A program made the translations under genes and the position numbers. Positions 2,294 to 37,357 of a stretch of DNA of 64,000 bases are shown piece by piece; the stretch's first letter is position 1; the number at the start of each line of letters is the position of its first letter. Under the pieces are notes generated by a model. It was not told where the DNA came from. It did not search any database and saw nothing but the letters and a program-made list of their open reading frames with translations. This DNA is from Escherichia phage ETEC-TG, in sequence record OR786310.1; one strand, 5' to 3'.

Positions 2294-3218
2294 AAGGCTT
2301 AACTACATGTTGATTAGCTTTAAAACGTTCAACATAGTCGTTTTCGCCCATGTTTTCATATAGCTTAGTAATAACATAAAAGTTTTCCCAAGCATATTCC
2401 CTAAACCAACCACTAGTGATGGATGTGCAGACTTTAGATAAAGCCATTATAAAACTTTGCTTAGGGGTTGGACCTCCGATCTCTTCACCGAAAGGAATTT
2501 GTGAACGTTCCAAAGCCAAAACACACGCTTCTTCATAAACACCTAACAGGCGCACATGTTTTGGTTGAGCAAAAAACTTTTCTTTGCTGGTCATAACTTC
2601 ACTTCCATCTTTCATATAAGATTTATATGCTGGAGCATCCATTACCGCGATTGCTTCATGGATAGAATCATGATCATAAACATACGGAACCTCATCACCT
2701 TTAAAGAAGTCTTTACTTTTTACGTTTAAGTTCGGATGAGAGTAAGTGTATGTTTCTTTCTCACGCAACTCATAAATACTCTTAAGATTTTCTGGGATCT
2801 TTGCACCCAGTGACCGCATGAAATGAATATCTTTCATAGTTTTAAAGAAGTGAGGACTATCCTTTTTAAAACGATGACTCATTTTAAGAAGGTAGAGCAC
2901 ATCTAAAGGAGCAACAACATGTCCAGCGTAAGTTCGACGAACATCATCAGAATCTTCACAATAACTAATCAAAGCTTCTGTGCTATCTCCTTGAGAAGCA
3001 ATATCGTATTCCAAATGTGCACCAGCTATCATTTTGACATGGCCTTTGTTTCCTTTACGTTCTACAAGTTCAACAAACTCATCTTGAGAGAACATTTTTG
3101 ATAATTCTTCCCACTCTTGTTCTGTACACAGGTAATCTAAATCTACACAAGGGCGATACAAGTCTTTTCCCATGTCCATAGCATGAATTTGTAATGCACG
3201 GCTACCAATTAACACCAT
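2277..3218 (-). CDS. hypothetical protein, possible nucleotidyltransferase fold
   Basis: 313 aa; N-terminal GS followed by CVDLDYL resembles the hG[GS]...[DE]h[DE]h signature of Pol-beta-like NTases. Confidence 0.4.
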   Translation of the reverse strand: MVLIGSRALQIHAMDMGKDLYRPCVDLDYLCTEQEWEELSKMFSQDEFVELVERKGNKGHVKMIAGAHLEYDIASQGDSTEALISYCEDSDDVRRTYAGHVVAPLDVLYLLKMSHRFKKDSPHFFKTMKDIHFMRSLGAKIPENLKSIYELREKETYTYSHPNLNVKSKDFFKGDEVPYVYDHDSIHEAIAVMDAPAYKSYMKDGSEVMTSKEKFFAQPKHVRLLGVYEEACVLALERSQIPFGEEIGGPTPKQSFIMALSKVCTSITSGWFREYAWENFYVITKLYENMGENDYVERFKANQHVVKPFEGGY

Positions 3219-3275
3219 AATATTTCTCCTCTATTGGTTGATAGGTTAAGTTTATCAAGCTTCCAGATTCCTGTC

Positions 3276-3300
3276 AATAAAAAACCCGCCGAAGCGGGTT
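3276..3300 (-). terminator. intrinsic terminator (UUCG-loop hairpin plus U-run)
   Basis: Minus-strand reading CCCGC-TTCG-GCGGG followed by TTTTTT, downstream of ORF 3309..3581. Confidence 0.6.
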
Positions 3301-3308
3301 ATTATTTA

Positions 3309-3581
3309 CTAACACATTGAGGAAGAAGAGATCCAAACACCTCTTGTGGTTAAACCATTTTCATCCAACTCTACACCATAATCTTCACAAATGAAATCAA
3401 TATAGTGATCTGCGGCTGGCGTTCCTGTAGGGTAATAAGTTTCTCCGTTACCGTAGTCACCTATCCAAGCTTGTTCCTGAAACTGTTCACAAAGTTCTTC
3501 AATTTCCTTACGAAACTTTCTTTGTGCTTGTTCCATCTCTTTAACTTTCTTTTTTATCAGCAGTTCGCCTTCAGACTCCAC
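3309..3581 (-). CDS. small acidic protein, W-x-SSS-C tail family
   Basis: 90 aa ending RGVWISSSSMC; same C-terminal tail as two neighbouring ORFs. Confidence 0.45.
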   Translation of the reverse strand: MESEGELLIKKKVKEMEQAQRKFRKEIEELCEQFQEQAWIGDYGNGETYYPTGTPAADHYIDFICEDYGVELDENGLTTRGVWISSSSMC

Positions 3582-28674: not shown

Positions 28675-29079
28675 TTATTGAAGTTTAAGTGAACCACGAA
28701 GACGTTTCTCTTGCTGATCACGAATATATTGTGGAACCTCGTGAATTGAATCATTACCGTGCCTATTTTCAACAACTAAAGAGATAACTTGATAACCAAA
28801 CTCTTCAGCAAGAGTTAGATAAGGTTTAAGTTCTTTCTCTGTGGTTGAAGTGTTAGAAACAATAATCTTGTTAAGATTAGATGCCATAGCATCACGAACA
28901 ATACTCTGACACCATGCGTGTGCTTTACCTACATTTTCTGGCTTCCAATCGTAAACACCACTTTCTGTGTAATGGTATTGATCTGCCTCACAGATAGGCC
29001 AATAACCTTCAGAAATAATTTCTGCTACCGTAGATTTACCAGCACCTGAAACGCCACGTAAAATGATAAGTTGTTTCAT
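28675..29079 (-). CDS. polynucleotide 5'-kinase (T4 Pnk kinase-domain-like P-loop kinase)
   Basis: MKQLIILRGVSGAGKST parallels T4 Pnk MKKIILTIGCPGSGKST; later IIVSNTSTT parallels VIISDTN. Confidence 0.65.
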   Translation of the reverse strand: MKQLIILRGVSGAGKSTVAEIISEGYWPICEADQYHYTESGVYDWKPENVGKAHAWCQSIVRDAMASNLNKIIVSNTSTTEKELKPYLTLAEEFGYQVISLVVENRHGNDSIHEVPQYIRDQQEKRLRGSLKLQ

Positions 29080-30012
29080 TTATCCTCCAAAGAAGTTTTC
29101 GATTTTTTCACGTCGCTCTTGCTGATTTAAAGCAGCCCATTGAGTCTTCGTAAAATTATTTCGAATCCATTCTAACAAAGCGTAATATTCTTCGTCAACA
29201 ATTTGTTTGGCATTTTTTGGATTATCCCAAATCAGATCCCACTTTTTATCTCCACCACGCATAAGAAACTTCTTAGTAAGATAGTGTGGTGATTTAATTT
29301 TTAAAAGTAAGTTGAACGGATAGTTTGTTTCACGAACTACAAACCCTTCGTGTTTACAATGTTTAGACATTTCAACAACATCTGAAAACTTAACCATTGG
29401 ATGAACTTCAGGACGCTTAAATTTGGTGACAGAAGCAATTCCATCAAGAGCACCTTCAGGTAACATAAAACTTGTCCCATCAGGATTTTGAATTCTGGCA
29501 CCAATTAAGTATGCACCTGGTTCTTCTTCGACAATATGCGGATCAGAAGGATCACAGATTTCAAACAGGAAAGTTGCTTTTGCACTCTCTGCCCATTTGA
29601 TGAAATGTTCTATGTCATCGCACTCTGAAACAATATGATTCTTTGCAATACTTGCAAAATCTGATTCAAGGCTTCCTGTTGTCGATACAATAAGTTGACC
29701 TTTATATACACCTACAGAGGCCATAAAACCATTTACTTTACGAACCACATCTACAAGTTCATCCGCTGGTAGATCTGTGCCATTCTCAAAACGATTAAAA
29801 ATCTTAGTGAAAGGCCAAATAACAACATTGTCATCAGCATCAACAACGATTCCGCGACATTCTAGAAGACGAGAATCAATGCTCCATAAGTTATCCCAGA
29901 AAACTTTGTTCTTATACTTAAGAACAGATAGACCAGAATACTCTCCTTCTTTATATGTTTTCTTATGAACTAAACCTTTTTCAACCAAATCGTCGCAATT
30001 AAATTTAGTCAC
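29080..30012 (-). CDS. RNA ligase, T4 Rnl1-like
   Basis: LLECRGIVV (T4 ALECRGIMF), motif I KVNGF, motif IV EGFVVRE, motif V LLKIKS. Confidence 0.75.
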   Translation of the reverse strand: MTKFNCDDLVEKGLVHKKTYKEGEYSGLSVLKYKNKVFWDNLWSIDSRLLECRGIVVDADDNVVIWPFTKIFNRFENGTDLPADELVDVVRKVNGFMASVGVYKGQLIVSTTGSLESDFASIAKNHIVSECDDIEHFIKWAESAKATFLFEICDPSDPHIVEEEPGAYLIGARIQNPDGTSFMLPEGALDGIASVTKFKRPEVHPMVKFSDVVEMSKHCKHEGFVVRETNYPFNLLLKIKSPHYLTKKFLMRGGDKKWDLIWDNPKNAKQIVDEEYYALLEWIRNNFTKTQWAALNQQERREKIENFFGG

Positions 30013-30013
30013 A

Positions 30014-30565
30014 TTACTCTCCTTTGATTATTTTGTGATGGTCTACAGTCACGATATCTCGTTTACTCATCATAGAAATTATCTCATCAAAATGCAAGAT
30101 TTTTCCGTGTGCATCCCAACCCACATCTAACATTTTACCATAAGCTTCATCAGGGAAAGATCCGTGGGAATGCCCGTGTAGCATGATTGATCCACGACCT
30201 TGTTTATTCCAGGAGGCAATAGGGTAATGACTTAAGACGAAGAACAGCTTCTGGTATTTCACTTCGTCATAATACACCACTTCGCCATACTCTGCAAGCA
30301 CTTCTCGGTGCTTGCTGTAATCATGGTTCCCAACAAGATAAGTGATATCCCCTTGCAGACGGGAAGCAATCTTACGGGTATCTTCTTCAGTCCCGAAACA
30401 GAAGTCGCCCAAATGCCACATCTTAACACCAGGGGTAGTAGCACATTTGTTCCATGCTTCGATCAAGGCTTCTGTCATGTGGTCCATATCTTCCCACGGA
30501 CGATATTCAGGAGCAAACTCTCGAATGCGTTTATGCATAAAATGCAAATCGCTTGTAATAAACAT
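30014..30565 (-). CDS. metallophosphoesterase (calcineurin-like), candidate RNA end-healing phosphatase
   Basis: SDLHF, GDFCFG, GNHD and HGHSHG motifs of the binuclear metallophosphoesterase fold; coupled to the ligase gene. Confidence 0.7.
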   Translation of the reverse strand: MFITSDLHFMHKRIREFAPEYRPWEDMDHMTEALIEAWNKCATTPGVKMWHLGDFCFGTEEDTRKIASRLQGDITYLVGNHDYSKHREVLAEYGEVVYYDEVKYQKLFFVLSHYPIASWNKQGRGSIMLHGHSHGSFPDEAYGKMLDVGWDAHGKILHFDEIISMMSKRDIVTVDHHKIIKGE

Positions 30566-30921
30566 TAGTATAATCCCTCGCTAAATAATTCATGGTCGTG
30601 ACCATTACGCTCATGGTCGATCTGGTCAGCATTTTCCGCGATGATGTAAGCATCCGCACGACTCCACCAATTGTAATACTGATCGATAAAGCCTTGATTA
30701 TCTGGTGTGCACAAAGTTTTGTTGATTACACCTGCTTCTTTCAACACGTTTAACTGTGCATATAGTACAGGATTTGCATGTCGAACACAAGGAATAATTA
30801 ACTCTTCGCCATTATTCAAAATATACTTATTTGCAGCACAGACAATAACACGTTGCGCATAATGACCCTCACCCATCCAGGTAAGAGGTTGGTAACAAAT
30901 GTTGTTTTCAATACCACTCAT
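30565..30921 (-). CDS. hypothetical protein
   Basis: 118 aa ORF. Confidence 0.4.
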   Translation of the reverse strand: MSGIENNICYQPLTWMGEGHYAQRVIVCAANKYILNNGEELIIPCVRHANPVLYAQLNVLKEAGVINKTLCTPDNQGFIDQYYNWWSRADAYIIAENADQIDHERNGHDHELFSEGLY

Positions 30922-31080
30922 TGTTTCCTAATCCTCCTCTCTTAAATTATCCTCGAAAAAACTAGTATCTGGAAGTAAAAGATCATTGCTTGTGTCGGGC
31001 CAATCCTCTTCTTCTCTGTAGATAAAGTAACCTTCGTCCTCTTTTTGTTCCGACCAAACCGAATGATGCATGTTCTCTCC

Positions 31081-31437
31081 TTAGTAGTGCACACGAATCA
31101 TTTTAATACCATAACGCTGCATGGATTCTTTTGCAAGCATGAATTTATCCCCAGCGGCGGGATTAGAAGTATGCACGAAAATGGTAGGTGAACCAAAGCA
31201 AGGTTTACCAAACGCCAGAAGTTCTTCCAGGTGCAGGAAAACATCATACCCATCTTGGTCTGACTCCATACCTAAATCGTTGTCAAAATGCCACTCGTCT
31301 ACAAAACGATAACCCTTCTGCACCTCATTCATGTAACGAGAGGCAAGAAGTTCCTGTGAGGTTTTAAACCAGATTGCATCTGGACAACCATAATCTTTTG
31401 GATCACGTAAATCATCAAGCCAAATAATAGTACCCAT
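31081..31437 (-). CDS. hypothetical protein
   Basis: 118 aa ORF with IIWLDDLRDP and VHTSNPAAG motifs of unknown family. Confidence 0.4.
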   Translation of the reverse strand: MGTIIWLDDLRDPKDYGCPDAIWFKTSQELLASRYMNEVQKGYRFVDEWHFDNDLGMESDQDGYDVFLHLEELLAFGKPCFGSPTIFVHTSNPAAGDKFMLAKESMQRYGIKMIRVHY

Positions 31438-35192: not shown

Positions 35193-35267
35193 GGCCCTGT
35201 AGCTCAATGGGAGAGCTGTCGGCTCATAACCGATAGGTAGCTGGATCGAAACCAGCCAGGGCCACCA
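35193..35267 (+). tRNA. tRNA-Met (CAT)
   Basis: Manual cloverleaf: acceptor GGCCCTG/CAGGGCC, anticodon loop CTCATAA, T-stem GCTGG/CCAGC, encoded CCA. Confidence 0.65.
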
Positions 35268-35269
35268 AC

Positions 35270-35344
35270 GTCTTTATGGTGTAATGGATAGCACAGGAGT
35301 CTTCTAAACTCTTAGTCAAGGTTCGATTCCTTGTAAAGACACCA
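35270..35344 (+). tRNA. tRNA-Arg (TCT)
   Basis: Acceptor GTCTTTA/TAAAGAC, anticodon loop CTTCTAA, T-loop TTCGATT, encoded CCA. Confidence 0.65.
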
Positions 35345-35578: not shown

Positions 35579-35669
35579 GGAAGGGCAAATCGACGTGGCG
35601 ACGAAAACGGTCTTGAAAACCGCCGAGCTTGAAAGAGCCTTGGGAGTTCGACTCTCCCTCCTTCCGCCA
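35579..35669 (+). tRNA. tRNA-Ser (TGA), class II
   Basis: Acceptor GGAAGGG/TCCTTCC, anticodon loop CTTGAAA, long variable arm, T-arm GGGAG-TTCGACT-CTCCC, discriminator G, CCA. Confidence 0.6.
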
Positions 35670-35900: not shown

Positions 35901-35988
35901 GGTGAGTTAATTCCGTAGGGGTAGCGGGGCAGACTGTAAATCTGTTATCATTGCGATTCGGGTGGTTCGACTCCATCACTCACCACCA
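35901..35988 (+). tRNA. tRNA-Tyr (GTA), class II
   Basis: Acceptor GGTGAGT/ACTCACC, anticodon stem-loop GCAGA-CTGTAAA-TCTGT, long variable arm, discriminator A, CCA; extra nucleotides between acceptor and D-stem. Confidence 0.55.
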
Positions 35989-36245: not shown

Positions 36246-36522
36246 ACACAACATTAAGAGCACTGTGATTGATCGTCGTATCCTGTGCACAAGGTCTGTT
36301 CGAAAGACAGTGTTCTTAGTATTGTGTTGATCACACAAAAAAAGAGTTACCTGAAACTTGACCGGAGTAGGGTTGGATGGGGCAAAAGAAGAAGCGGCTC
36401 TCCCATCGACAGCAACGAAGAATAATATTTGACTTTGGTTTTGTATTATTTTAAGTTAGCTTACCGAACGTAGGGCTAGTCACCCAACGGGATACTCGTC
36501 ACTGTCCCACTCAATAAAACTA

Positions 36523-36552
36523 TTGACAACCAATAGTAAAATGTAGTATAGT
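36523..36552 (+). promoter_or_regulatory. sigma70-like promoter (TTGACA, 18 nt, TATAGT)
   Basis: -35 TTGACA 36523..36528 and -10 TATAGT 36547..36552, about 12 nt upstream of tRNA-Gly. Confidence 0.45.
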
Positions 36553-36904: not shown

Positions 36905-36981
36905 CGGAATTTAGCTCAGTTTGGTAGAGTGTACGCTTTGGGAGCGTATTGTCGCAGGTTCGAATCCTGCAATTCCGACCA
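36905..36981 (+). tRNA. tRNA-Pro (TGG)
   Basis: C1-G72 acceptor CGGAATT/AATTCCG, D-arm GCTC-AGTTTGGTA-GAGT, anticodon loop TTTGGGA, T-arm GCAGG-TTCGAAT-CCTGC, CCA. Confidence 0.65.
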
Positions 36982-36987
36982 ATTAAA

Positions 36988-37061
36988 TGTTTCGTAGTTC
37001 AATGGTAGAACCCACGACTGATAATCGTGAGATACAAGTTCGATTCTTGTCGAAACAACCA
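36988..37061 (+). tRNA. tRNA-Ile (GAT)
   Basis: Acceptor TGTTTCG/CGAAACA, D-arm GTTC-AATGGTA-GAAC, anticodon stem-loop CACGA-CTGATAA-TCGTG, T-loop TTCGATT, CCA. Confidence 0.65.
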
Positions 37062-37063
37062 GT

Positions 37064-37133
37064 TTCCCGTTAGACTTACAGGATAAGAGTTCCACAATTT
37101 ATTGTGACGCTGGTTCGAATCCAGCACGGGATA
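37064..37133 (+). ncRNA. tRNA-like element with collapsed anticodon loop
   Basis: Acceptor TCCCGT/ACGGGA, D-arm with GG loop, canonical T-arm GCTGG-TTCGAAT-CCAGC, but the anticodon arm is CACAA-TTTA-TTGTG (4-nt loop); no encoded CCA. Confidence 0.35.
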
Positions 37134-37139
37134 CATAAT

Positions 37140-37218
37140 AGCGGGATAGAGGAGTCTGGTCGTCCTCGCCAGTTTCATATGCTGGAGATCATTGGTTCAA
37201 ATCCAATTCCCGCCTCCA
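37140..37218 (+). tRNA. tRNA with CAT anticodon (Met or Ile2)
   Basis: Acceptor (A)GCGGGA/TCCCGC(C), anticodon stem-loop CCAGT-TTCATAT-GCTGG, T-arm ATTGG-TTCAAAT-CCAAT, CCA; position 1 may be unpaired. Confidence 0.5.
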
Positions 37219-37333: not shown

Positions 37334-37357
37334 AGCCTCCTTATTGGAGGCTTTTTG
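37334..37357 (+). terminator. intrinsic terminator closing the tRNA array
   Basis: AGCCTCC-ttatt-GGAGGCT followed by TTTTT. Confidence 0.65.

Follow-up and report, generated by a model that had tools for sequence, protein, structure and literature searches.

The window analyzed here is a 64,000-nucleotide stretch of Escherichia phage ETEC-TG (OR786310.1). The phage is phAPEC8-like, and the 3-kb region around the element studied here is 99.4% identical to Escherichia phage vB_EcoM_ASO2A and 97 to 99% identical to phAPEC8 and dozens of other genomes of Phapecoctavirus, a genus of ~150-kb E. coli myophages in the Stephanstirmvirinae. ARAGORN calls ten plus-strand tRNA genes between positions 35193 and 37218, and Rfam adds two matches, a weak tRNA at 35901 to 35985 and a match to the tRNA-Sec model at 35579 to 35665. 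In the last part of the array, a promoter-like site is followed by the Gly, Gln, Pro, and Ile tRNAs, the element, and the second CAU tRNA, and an intrinsic-terminator-like hairpin closes this operon (Table 1). The element was placed by an earlier note between tRNA-Ile and the second CAT tRNA; the ARAGORN calls agree, with these neighbors only 2 nt and 6 nt away. All five tRNAs of the operon encode CCA, and the element does not. Overlapping ORFs of 28 to 59 aa cover the element on both strands, as do "hypothetical protein" calls in the UPEC06 and WPEC records; they run through tRNA genes and were judged spurious.

Several observations concern the rest of the array. The second CAU gene, tRNA-Met(CAU), is 79 nt long and has an A1.C72 mismatch, an enlarged D loop, and an Rfam score of only 50 bits. 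The phAPEC8 and Mt1B1_P17 records label it "tRNA-Pseudo-CAT" despite its 95 to 97% conservation in the sister genus Justusliebigvirus. The weak Rfam match is a tRNA-Tyr(GUA) (39 bits, no ARAGORN call) that is marked "pseudo" in several relatives. Across eight Phapecoctavirus genomes, ~26% of this segment and its preceding spacer is variable, a pattern suggestive of allele replacement. Similarly, tRNA-Pro(UGG) at 36905 to 36981 has 23 to 37 variable positions among close relatives, with flanking tRNAs that are near invariant, and different alleles have been swapped in. The 87-nt tRNA-Sec match (37.4 bits against a threshold of 47, no ARAGORN call) is listed as tRNA-Ser(TGA), a tRNAscan-SE call, in the ASO2A annotation. 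Further, an insertion of ~700 bp near window position 36510 is found in metagenome contig OBRO01000001 (L008, ~2851 to 3555) and in Klebsiella phage ZCKP1.

Table 1. Positions of the tRNA-like element, its parts, its neighbors, and other features discussed (window positions unless a locus, L017, L025, or L027, is named)
Feature	Position	Strand	Basis or remark
tRNA-like element, non-decoding cloverleaf	37064-37133	+	MFE cloverleaf; family model R1, 100.8 bits
tRNA-Ile(GAU), encodes CCA	36988-37061	+	ARAGORN; Rfam 72.2 bits; ends 2 nt upstream of element
tRNA-Met(CAU), second CAU tRNA	37140-37218	+	ARAGORN; Rfam 50.1 bits; starts 6 nt downstream of element
Promoter-like TTGACA-18-TATAGT	36523-36552	+	Consensus scan, 11/12 matches; candidate site only
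Intrinsic-terminator-like hairpin and T run, closing the tRNA operon	37334-37352	+	Annotated terminator in ASO2A
Acceptor stem, 5' strand, UCCCGU	37065-37070	+	Pairs with 37126-37131
Acceptor stem, 3' strand, ACGGGA	37126-37131	+	Sequence reading, MFE fold
D-arm region, weak stem around loop UACAGGAUAAG	37073-37091	+	MFE stem 73-77/87-91
Anticodon-position hairpin CACAA-UUUA-UUGUG, 5 bp and 4-nt loop	37093-37106	+	Sequence reading, MFE fold
Variable region, 2 nt, AC (AU in most relatives)	37107-37108	+	MFE fold, family alignment
T arm GCUGG-UUCGAAU-CCAGC, consensus T loop	37109-37125	+	Sequence reading, MFE fold
3' tail and spacer UACAUAAU, no CCA	37132-37139	+	CCU or CCC in other haplotypes
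P-loop kinase	28675-29079	-	PF13671
T4 Rnl1-type RNA ligase	29080-30012	-	PF09511
Metallophosphoesterase	30014-30565	-	phrog_547
Cyclic-phosphate-processing receiver domain protein (cREC_REC)	31081-31437	-	PF20274
Enterobacter-phage tRNA-like genes	L017 1504-1581; L025 6251-6328; L027 505-582		

The unconstrained MFE fold of the element is a cloverleaf (-20.8 kcal/mol, z = -2.97; 2 of 200 shuffles were equally stable). Direct reading recovers the 6-bp acceptor stem and the perfect T arm described in the earlier note, and the MFE cloverleaf contains the hairpin with a 4-nt loop that the note had seen at the anticodon position. The D loop holds the expected G18G19-like GG at 37081 to 37082. At the outer end of the acceptor stem, U64 (37064) faces U132 (37132) as a mismatch, and the element's 3' tail is AUACAU, with no encoded CCA, also as described. 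Two features go beyond that description: the variable region is only 2 nt long, and the D stem, 78 to 84% paired across the family, is weak and can be drawn in more than one register.

The earlier note had named an alternative fold with a normal 7-nt anticodon loop as the finding that would count against its claim. Enumeration of hairpins in 37086 to 37110 gave no 7-nt-loop hairpin with at least 3 bp; the interval otherwise allows only a 6-nt loop on 4 bp or an 8-nt loop on 3 bp. Because the loop is 4 nt and has no 7-nt alternative, no anticodon can be presented from it, and decoding is impossible. Two other pairings were set aside. A helix between AUAAG in the D loop and CUUAU in the anticodon loop, which appears in MFE folds of the commoner haplotypes, is impossible in A7_1, UPEC06, and phiEB49 and was taken to be coincidence. 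A GGA(U)/(A)UCC hairpin, which the T90A variant would strengthen, would form at the expense of the anticodon stem, and nothing independent supports it.

Standard tRNA finders pass over the element. The covariance-model scan proposed as a check in the earlier note, run with the Rfam tRNA model (RF00005), gave no match over 37064 to 37133 at the gathering threshold (29 bits) or even at E<=10. ARAGORN makes no call at its default or 90% threshold, and the element is uncalled in all ~20 public annotations checked. A canonical tRNA has a 5-bp anticodon stem and a 7-nt loop with U33 and a purine at position 37; the element has a 4-nt loop, UUUA. Similarly, in place of a 7-bp acceptor and a variable region of at least 4 nt, it has 6 bp plus U.U and 2 nt. 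The 5-bp T stem, a UUCRANY T loop, and the D-loop GG are present. Models of known tRNA-like RNAs also find nothing on the element. The sole match to YrlA (RF02553) lies off it, at 36950 to 37011 (21.1 bits, E=0.39), and the ORFs scanned in 28.6 to 45.6 kb include no Ro60-like (rsr) gene. The sole match to mascRNA (RF01684) is on tRNA-Arg at 35270 to 35340 (20.3 bits, E=0.93).

BLAST finds the element in ~70 Phapecoctavirus records, and four Vequintavirinae phages (A7_1, A73, W70, and UPEC06) carry a homologue directly 3' of tRNA-Tyr. We built a covariance model, R1, from the Phapecoctavirus and Vequintavirinae copies; its E-values are rough. Within the window, R1 identifies one copy, the next match being tRNA-Met1 at 32 bits. 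Outside it, R1 assigns 67 bits to a gene of phiEB49 (Drexlerviridae) annotated as tRNA-Val(AAC) (JF770475, 43830 to 43906), 46.6 bits to the tRNA-Arg of phiEB49, and at most 32 bits to unrelated tRNAs. The tRNA-Val(AAC) gene is 70 to 76% identical to the element and has the same T arm, a variable region of 2 to 3 nt, the D loop UACAGGAUAAG, and homologous anticodon-stem pairs with compensatory changes. Unlike the element, it encodes ACCA and has a 7-bp acceptor and a 7-nt loop (UUAACAA, in which U33 and A37 are present). Even so, its Rfam tRNA score of 24.6 bits falls short of the 29-bit threshold.

The Vequintavirinae element is the nearest relative outside the genus (79% identity) and, like that of the window, is non-decoding and lies directly 3' of a tRNA. 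It is unannotated, and neither ARAGORN nor Rfam reports it in A7_1 or UPEC06. Its anticodon arm, however, has the canonical length of 17 nt, with a self-complementary loop (CGUAUCG or CGUCUCG) that is predicted to close into a 7-bp hairpin with a UAU or UCU triloop. It also differs in having a full 7-bp acceptor, and CCA is readable after a 6-bp stem. In Phapecoctavirus the arm is 13 to 14 nt long with loop UUUA, CUUA, or CUA, position 1:72 is U.U or U.C, and the tail is CAU, CCU, or CCC. An odd 11-nt D loop, the one given above for phiEB49, and a 2- to 3-nt variable region are common to all members. The UCU triloop of UPEC06 prompted us to consider ancestry from tRNA-Arg(UCU), which we rejected; an identity of ~60% is baseline support only.

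A group of ~76-kb Enterobacter phages carries unannotated tRNA-like genes directly after tRNA-Gln, scoring 55 to 59 bits with R1 and 33 bits with the Rfam tRNA model. These genes encode CCA and have a 7-bp acceptor; their variable region is 2 nt long, and their "anticodon" loop, (A/G)ACUUAAGA, is 9 nt long. They are possible further members of the family. Scans of IMG/VR, metagenomes, and genomes returned only more Phapecoctavirus, a phiEB49 contig, the Enterobacter-phage group, and ordinary tRNA-Lys and tRNA-Arg genes (38 to 41 bits, with the T arm in common); no clear functional ancestor was found in these scans. Searched for a host origin, 5,426 complete E. coli genomes gave no match. The element is absent from Justusliebigvirus, where the tRNA-Met homologue is kept at 95 to 97% identity and tRNA-Leu lies upstream of tRNA-Met. 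The element appears to have spread horizontally among unrelated coliphages of the Stephanstirmvirinae, Vequintavirinae, and Drexlerviridae.

Alignment with related phages, another check proposed earlier, reveals an excess of variation over working tRNAs, at a level like that of spacers and with disruptive variants. Across eight aligned Phapecoctavirus arrays, 4 of 70 sites in the element are variable, compared with 7 of 700 in nine working tRNAs (Fisher p=0.013) and 32 of 1180 in the spacers (no difference, p=0.14); the within-genus sample is small, with 8 to 19 genomes and 4 to 10 variable sites. In the same eight arrays, pi is 0.028 for the element, 0 to 0.012 for tRNAs, and 0.005 to 0.027 for spacers. 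Among 14 sequences, the element has 8 substituted and 2 indel columns, tRNA-Ile 1, and tRNA-Met 6; the tRNA-Met changes include a compensatory pair (37193/37205), and the element has none within the genus. Ten element haplotypes occur among 19 genomes. Most of their substitutions in stems break pairing: T90A and G87T fall in the D stem, and G109A, the A.C mismatch of MirsaeidiM, in the T stem. In ESCO25 the T loop carries one additional A and is 8 nt long, and the anticodon-position loop varies between 3 and 4 nt. These disruptive variants occur in viable isolates. When the folds predicted for all haplotypes are compared, no helix other than the acceptor stem and the T arm is present throughout.

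Between lineages, the element is the most similar tRNA-like gene when Phapecoctavirus and A7_1-type arrays are compared, at 79% identity versus 60 to 71% for the others. Comparison of the window with A7_1 and UPEC06 reveals two double-sided stem changes, C66-G130 to U-A and G109-C125 to A-U, in a Vequintavirinae sample of four sequences, two of them distinct; the second pair is G-U in phiEB49. In this comparison, 92.9% of cells are paired; sliding the 3' partners lowers this to 29 to 52%. Adding phiEB49 and the Enterobacter-phage group gives 12 of 21 doubly changed pairs, in an alignment that is model-fitted and contains real tRNAs. No difference between the window and A7_1 falls in the D loop, T loop, or anticodon stem, an outcome with a probability of ~0.001 to 0.006 at a neutral divergence of 15 to 20%. 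Further, the presence of the element and its 2-nt and 6-nt spacing are invariant in all ~70 Phapecoctavirus records found, in an array otherwise subject to indels and allele swaps. Selection acting on a non-decoding RNA could account for the conservation between lineages; an equally good account is that the element was transferred recently and that each lineage then lost the loop on its own. If the closed hairpin of both lineages is ancestral, the structure would have been preserved after decoding was lost.

Judged from its sequence, the element is tRNA-derived, and on balance we incline toward reading it as a decayed, non-decoding tRNA gene to which no independent function is assigned. A decaying tRNA gene in a phage tRNA cluster would be fairly ordinary. 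The earlier note had offered a decaying pseudogene, a decoy for tRNA-targeting nucleases, and a processing signal. The first of these fits best, and a decoy for anticodon nucleases is unlikely because the loop is gone. Several observations argue for decay. The element is homologous to a tRNA of phiEB49 with a normal loop, as judged by R1 and by the D and T arms in common, and its place is in a tRNA array. The anticodon loop, the CCA that the other operon tRNAs encode, and the first acceptor pair have all been lost. Its variation within the genus, in the small sample above, exceeds that of working tRNAs and equals that of spacers. The sister genus lacks it, only its acceptor stem and T arm hold constant among haplotype folds, and the arrays contain other sub-par tRNAs. 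Against decay, all of the Phapecoctavirus records found keep the element with its spacing unchanged, and it is the best-conserved tRNA-like gene between lineages, with two fully compensatory stem changes and an unaltered D loop, T loop, and anticodon stem. The closed anticodon hairpin of both lineages also counts on this side if it is ancestral.

On this decay reading, the element would descend from a tRNA whose phiEB49 relative keeps the 7-bp acceptor, 7-nt loop, and ACCA. In the Phapecoctavirus lineage, the anticodon loop would have shrunk to 3 to 4 nt, leaving no anticodon to present; U.U or U.C would have replaced the first acceptor pair, and drift would have turned the CCA into CAU, CCU, or CCC. 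Because it lies inside the tRNA operon, between the promoter-like site at 36523 and the terminator at 37334, the element is probably co-transcribed with its neighbors. The acceptor stem, T arm, T loop, and D-loop GG are left intact. The acceptor/T-arm half is the part of a tRNA recognized by RNase P, the 3' trimming enzymes, TruB/TrmA, and the CCA-adding enzyme. Because this half is intact, RNase P probably still cuts the precursor at the 5' end of the element. Such a cut would free tRNA-Ile with a 2- to 3-nt trailer and release a ~70-nt non-decoding, tRNA-shaped RNA; given the 2-nt and 6-nt spacing, both neighbors would be left with short trimmable flanks. Small size and clean excision, which would keep the maturation of the neighbors working, may explain how such a relic persists. 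RNase P is known to cut tRNA-like domains whose acceptor stem is complete, and these also receive CCA (PMC4201824).

If the element is a relic, the point is a modest one, namely, that standard tRNA finders and the annotations checked miss a tRNA-derived gene. The phiEB49, A7_1, and Phapecoctavirus forms would then make up a decay series in which the half recognized by RNase P lasts longest. The closest described counterparts in such arrays are the pseudo-tRNAs labeled "tRNA-Pseudo-GTA" and "tRNA-Pseudo-CAT" in phAPEC8 and Mt1B1_P17. Like the element, they are tRNA-derived, lie co-oriented in the array, have lost canonical features, and vary more than working tRNAs. These neighbors, however, keep a 7-nt loop and pass the Rfam threshold at 39 to 50 bits, whereas the element has no presentable anticodon, is missed by tRNAscan-SE, ARAGORN, and Rfam, and is unannotated in the records checked.

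Non-decoding cloverleaf RNAs are known from other systems. mascRNA/MEN-beta (RF01684) is a cloverleaf with a degenerate anticodon loop that directs cleavage by RNase P and RNase Z, releasing a small RNA that bears a CCA tail but is not aminoacylated. It may work as the element does, but it is an element of mammalian nuclear lncRNA and has no sequence relationship to it. The tRNA-like RNAs of MHV68 (Murid gammaherpesvirus 68) and the stable RNA species 1 and 2 of T4 are processed and non-decoding, with unknown or accessory function. They resemble the element in being virus-encoded and tRNA-shaped or located in a tRNA cluster, but they belong to other viruses with other transcription (RNA polymerase III in MHV68), and no homology to the element is expected. 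The tRNA-like domain of YrlA (RF02553) has acceptor, D, and T arms. RNase P, TruB, DusA, and the CCA-adding enzyme all recognize it, and some phages encode it beside tRNAs (PMC4201824). In YrlA, however, a long Ro60-binding helix replaces the anticodon arm and the gene lies near rsr, whereas the arm of the element is a 5-bp hairpin. By analogy, the proposed mechanism most resembles that of mascRNA- or YrlA-type tRNA-like substrates, and the element is a member of neither family. A literature search found no paper on the element, no small-RNA data for Phapecoctavirus, and no phage tRNA-like decoys.

From the sequence, the element could plausibly act as a processing signal for RNase P, because only the acceptor stem and T arm stay constant. 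It is a further step, and one that we consider unlikely overall, to suppose that the relic is exapted as punctuation, under selection as an RNase P site that separates the 3' end of tRNA-Ile from the 5' leader of tRNA-Met. Without the element, tRNA-Ile would carry a 78-nt structured trailer. The spacers of just 2 and 6 nt never vary in length, as such a role would have it. The acceptor stem (65-70/126-131) and T arm are not only the sole helices constant in haplotype folds, but are invariant in sequence save for singletons, and the element shares the interval between promoter-like site and terminator with five tRNAs. It is established that closely packed tRNAs of E. coli operons are parted by RNase P, as reportedly described by Mohanty and Kushner in 2007. 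The behavior of full-acceptor tRNA-like domains as substrates for RNase P and CCA addition (PMC4201824) points the same way. However, the sister genus matures the same tRNA-Met without any element, an A.C mismatch in the T stem and an 8-nt T loop each occur in viable isolates, and punctuation needs no conservation of the anticodon stem or D loop.

The minus strand of the window carries an RNA-repair-like cassette at 28675 to 31437 (Table 1), which resembles the Pnk/Rnl1 answer of T4 to anticodon nucleases. Conflict with tRNA-targeting defenses is relevant to this phage, since this kinase, ligase, and phosphoesterase cassette lies only a few kilobases from the array. It is conceivable, although we hold it doubtful, that the element is a functional non-decoding tRNA mimic, a stable RNA kept to bind or sponge a protein that recognizes the tRNA body. 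Candidate targets would be a host defense effector that acts on the elbow or the acceptor end, a modifying enzyme, or the RNA-repair enzymes that the phage itself encodes. A broader and similarly tentative version posits an undescribed family of mimics that moved horizontally among unrelated enterobacterial phages, with the anticodon arm deliberately closed and with a protein sponge as the product; its members would be the copies in Phapecoctavirus, in some Vequintavirinae, and possibly in the ~76-kb Enterobacter phages with their 9-nt loop. If true, such a phage-encoded mimic would bring RNA decoys, as an additional layer, into the contest of phages with tRNA-targeting defenses.

The deep conservation with compensatory changes, the closed anticodon hairpins in two phage subfamilies, and the apparent horizontal spread across Stephanstirmvirinae, Vequintavirinae, and Drexlerviridae, with a possible Enterobacter-phage group, are all consistent with a mimic. 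The kinase, Rnl1-type RNA ligase, and phosphoesterase of the cassette indicate pressure from tRNA-cutting defenses, and phage tRNAs are known as counter-defenses (PMC10264068, PMC11464382, PMC11555353). Those documented counter-defense tRNAs, however, are decoding-competent and have 7-nt loops, and these papers make no mention of decoys or pseudo-tRNAs (PMC10264068, PMC11464382, PMC11555353). A T5-type counter-defense tRNA, which evades PrrC, PARIS, or retron effectors, decodes through an altered 7-nt loop and takes the place of a cleaved host tRNA, whereas the element can present no anticodon, and the anticodon nucleases read precisely the loop that it is missing. Nor is its variation within the genus lower than that of spacers; disruptive variants are tolerated, the CCA is decaying, and the sister genus does without the element.

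An unconventional decoding tRNA, for example a frameshift or suppressor tRNA with a 3-bp stem and an 8-nt loop, is highly improbable. Such a stem with the loop AAUUUAUU can be drawn, and ARAGORN, at an 80% threshold only, calls a "tRNA-Asn(att)" at 37065 to 37132, which we rejected as a forced fit. Against this stand the differences in the loop among close relatives (UUUA, CUUA, and CUA in Phapecoctavirus, UAU versus UCU in Vequintavirinae), along with the missing U33/R37 context, the 2-nt variable region, the lack of CCA, the 1:72 mismatch, and the silence of the Rfam tRNA model. Chance resemblance of spacer DNA to a cloverleaf, for which one could cite only that standard tRNA finders miss the element, is virtually untenable, being refuted by homologues with compensatory changes in three phage families, and it fits poorly with a fold z of about -3, a T loop that matches the consensus perfectly, and the spacing of a tRNA array.

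Other degenerate tRNA-like sequences came to light in related arrays. In A7_1 and UPEC06, weak tRNA matches of 34 to 36 bits with no ARAGORN call lie just upstream of tRNA-Met (L002 1442 to 1520 and L003 1069 to 1147). In the Justusliebigvirus phage alia, an unannotated segment between tRNA-Met and tRNA-Ile (L028 1637 to 1719) reads by eye as a degenerate tRNA with a CUCCAAA loop and a Trp-like anticodon, CCA. A further weak match in phage alia lies at L028 360 to 431, and relics seem to be common in these arrays.
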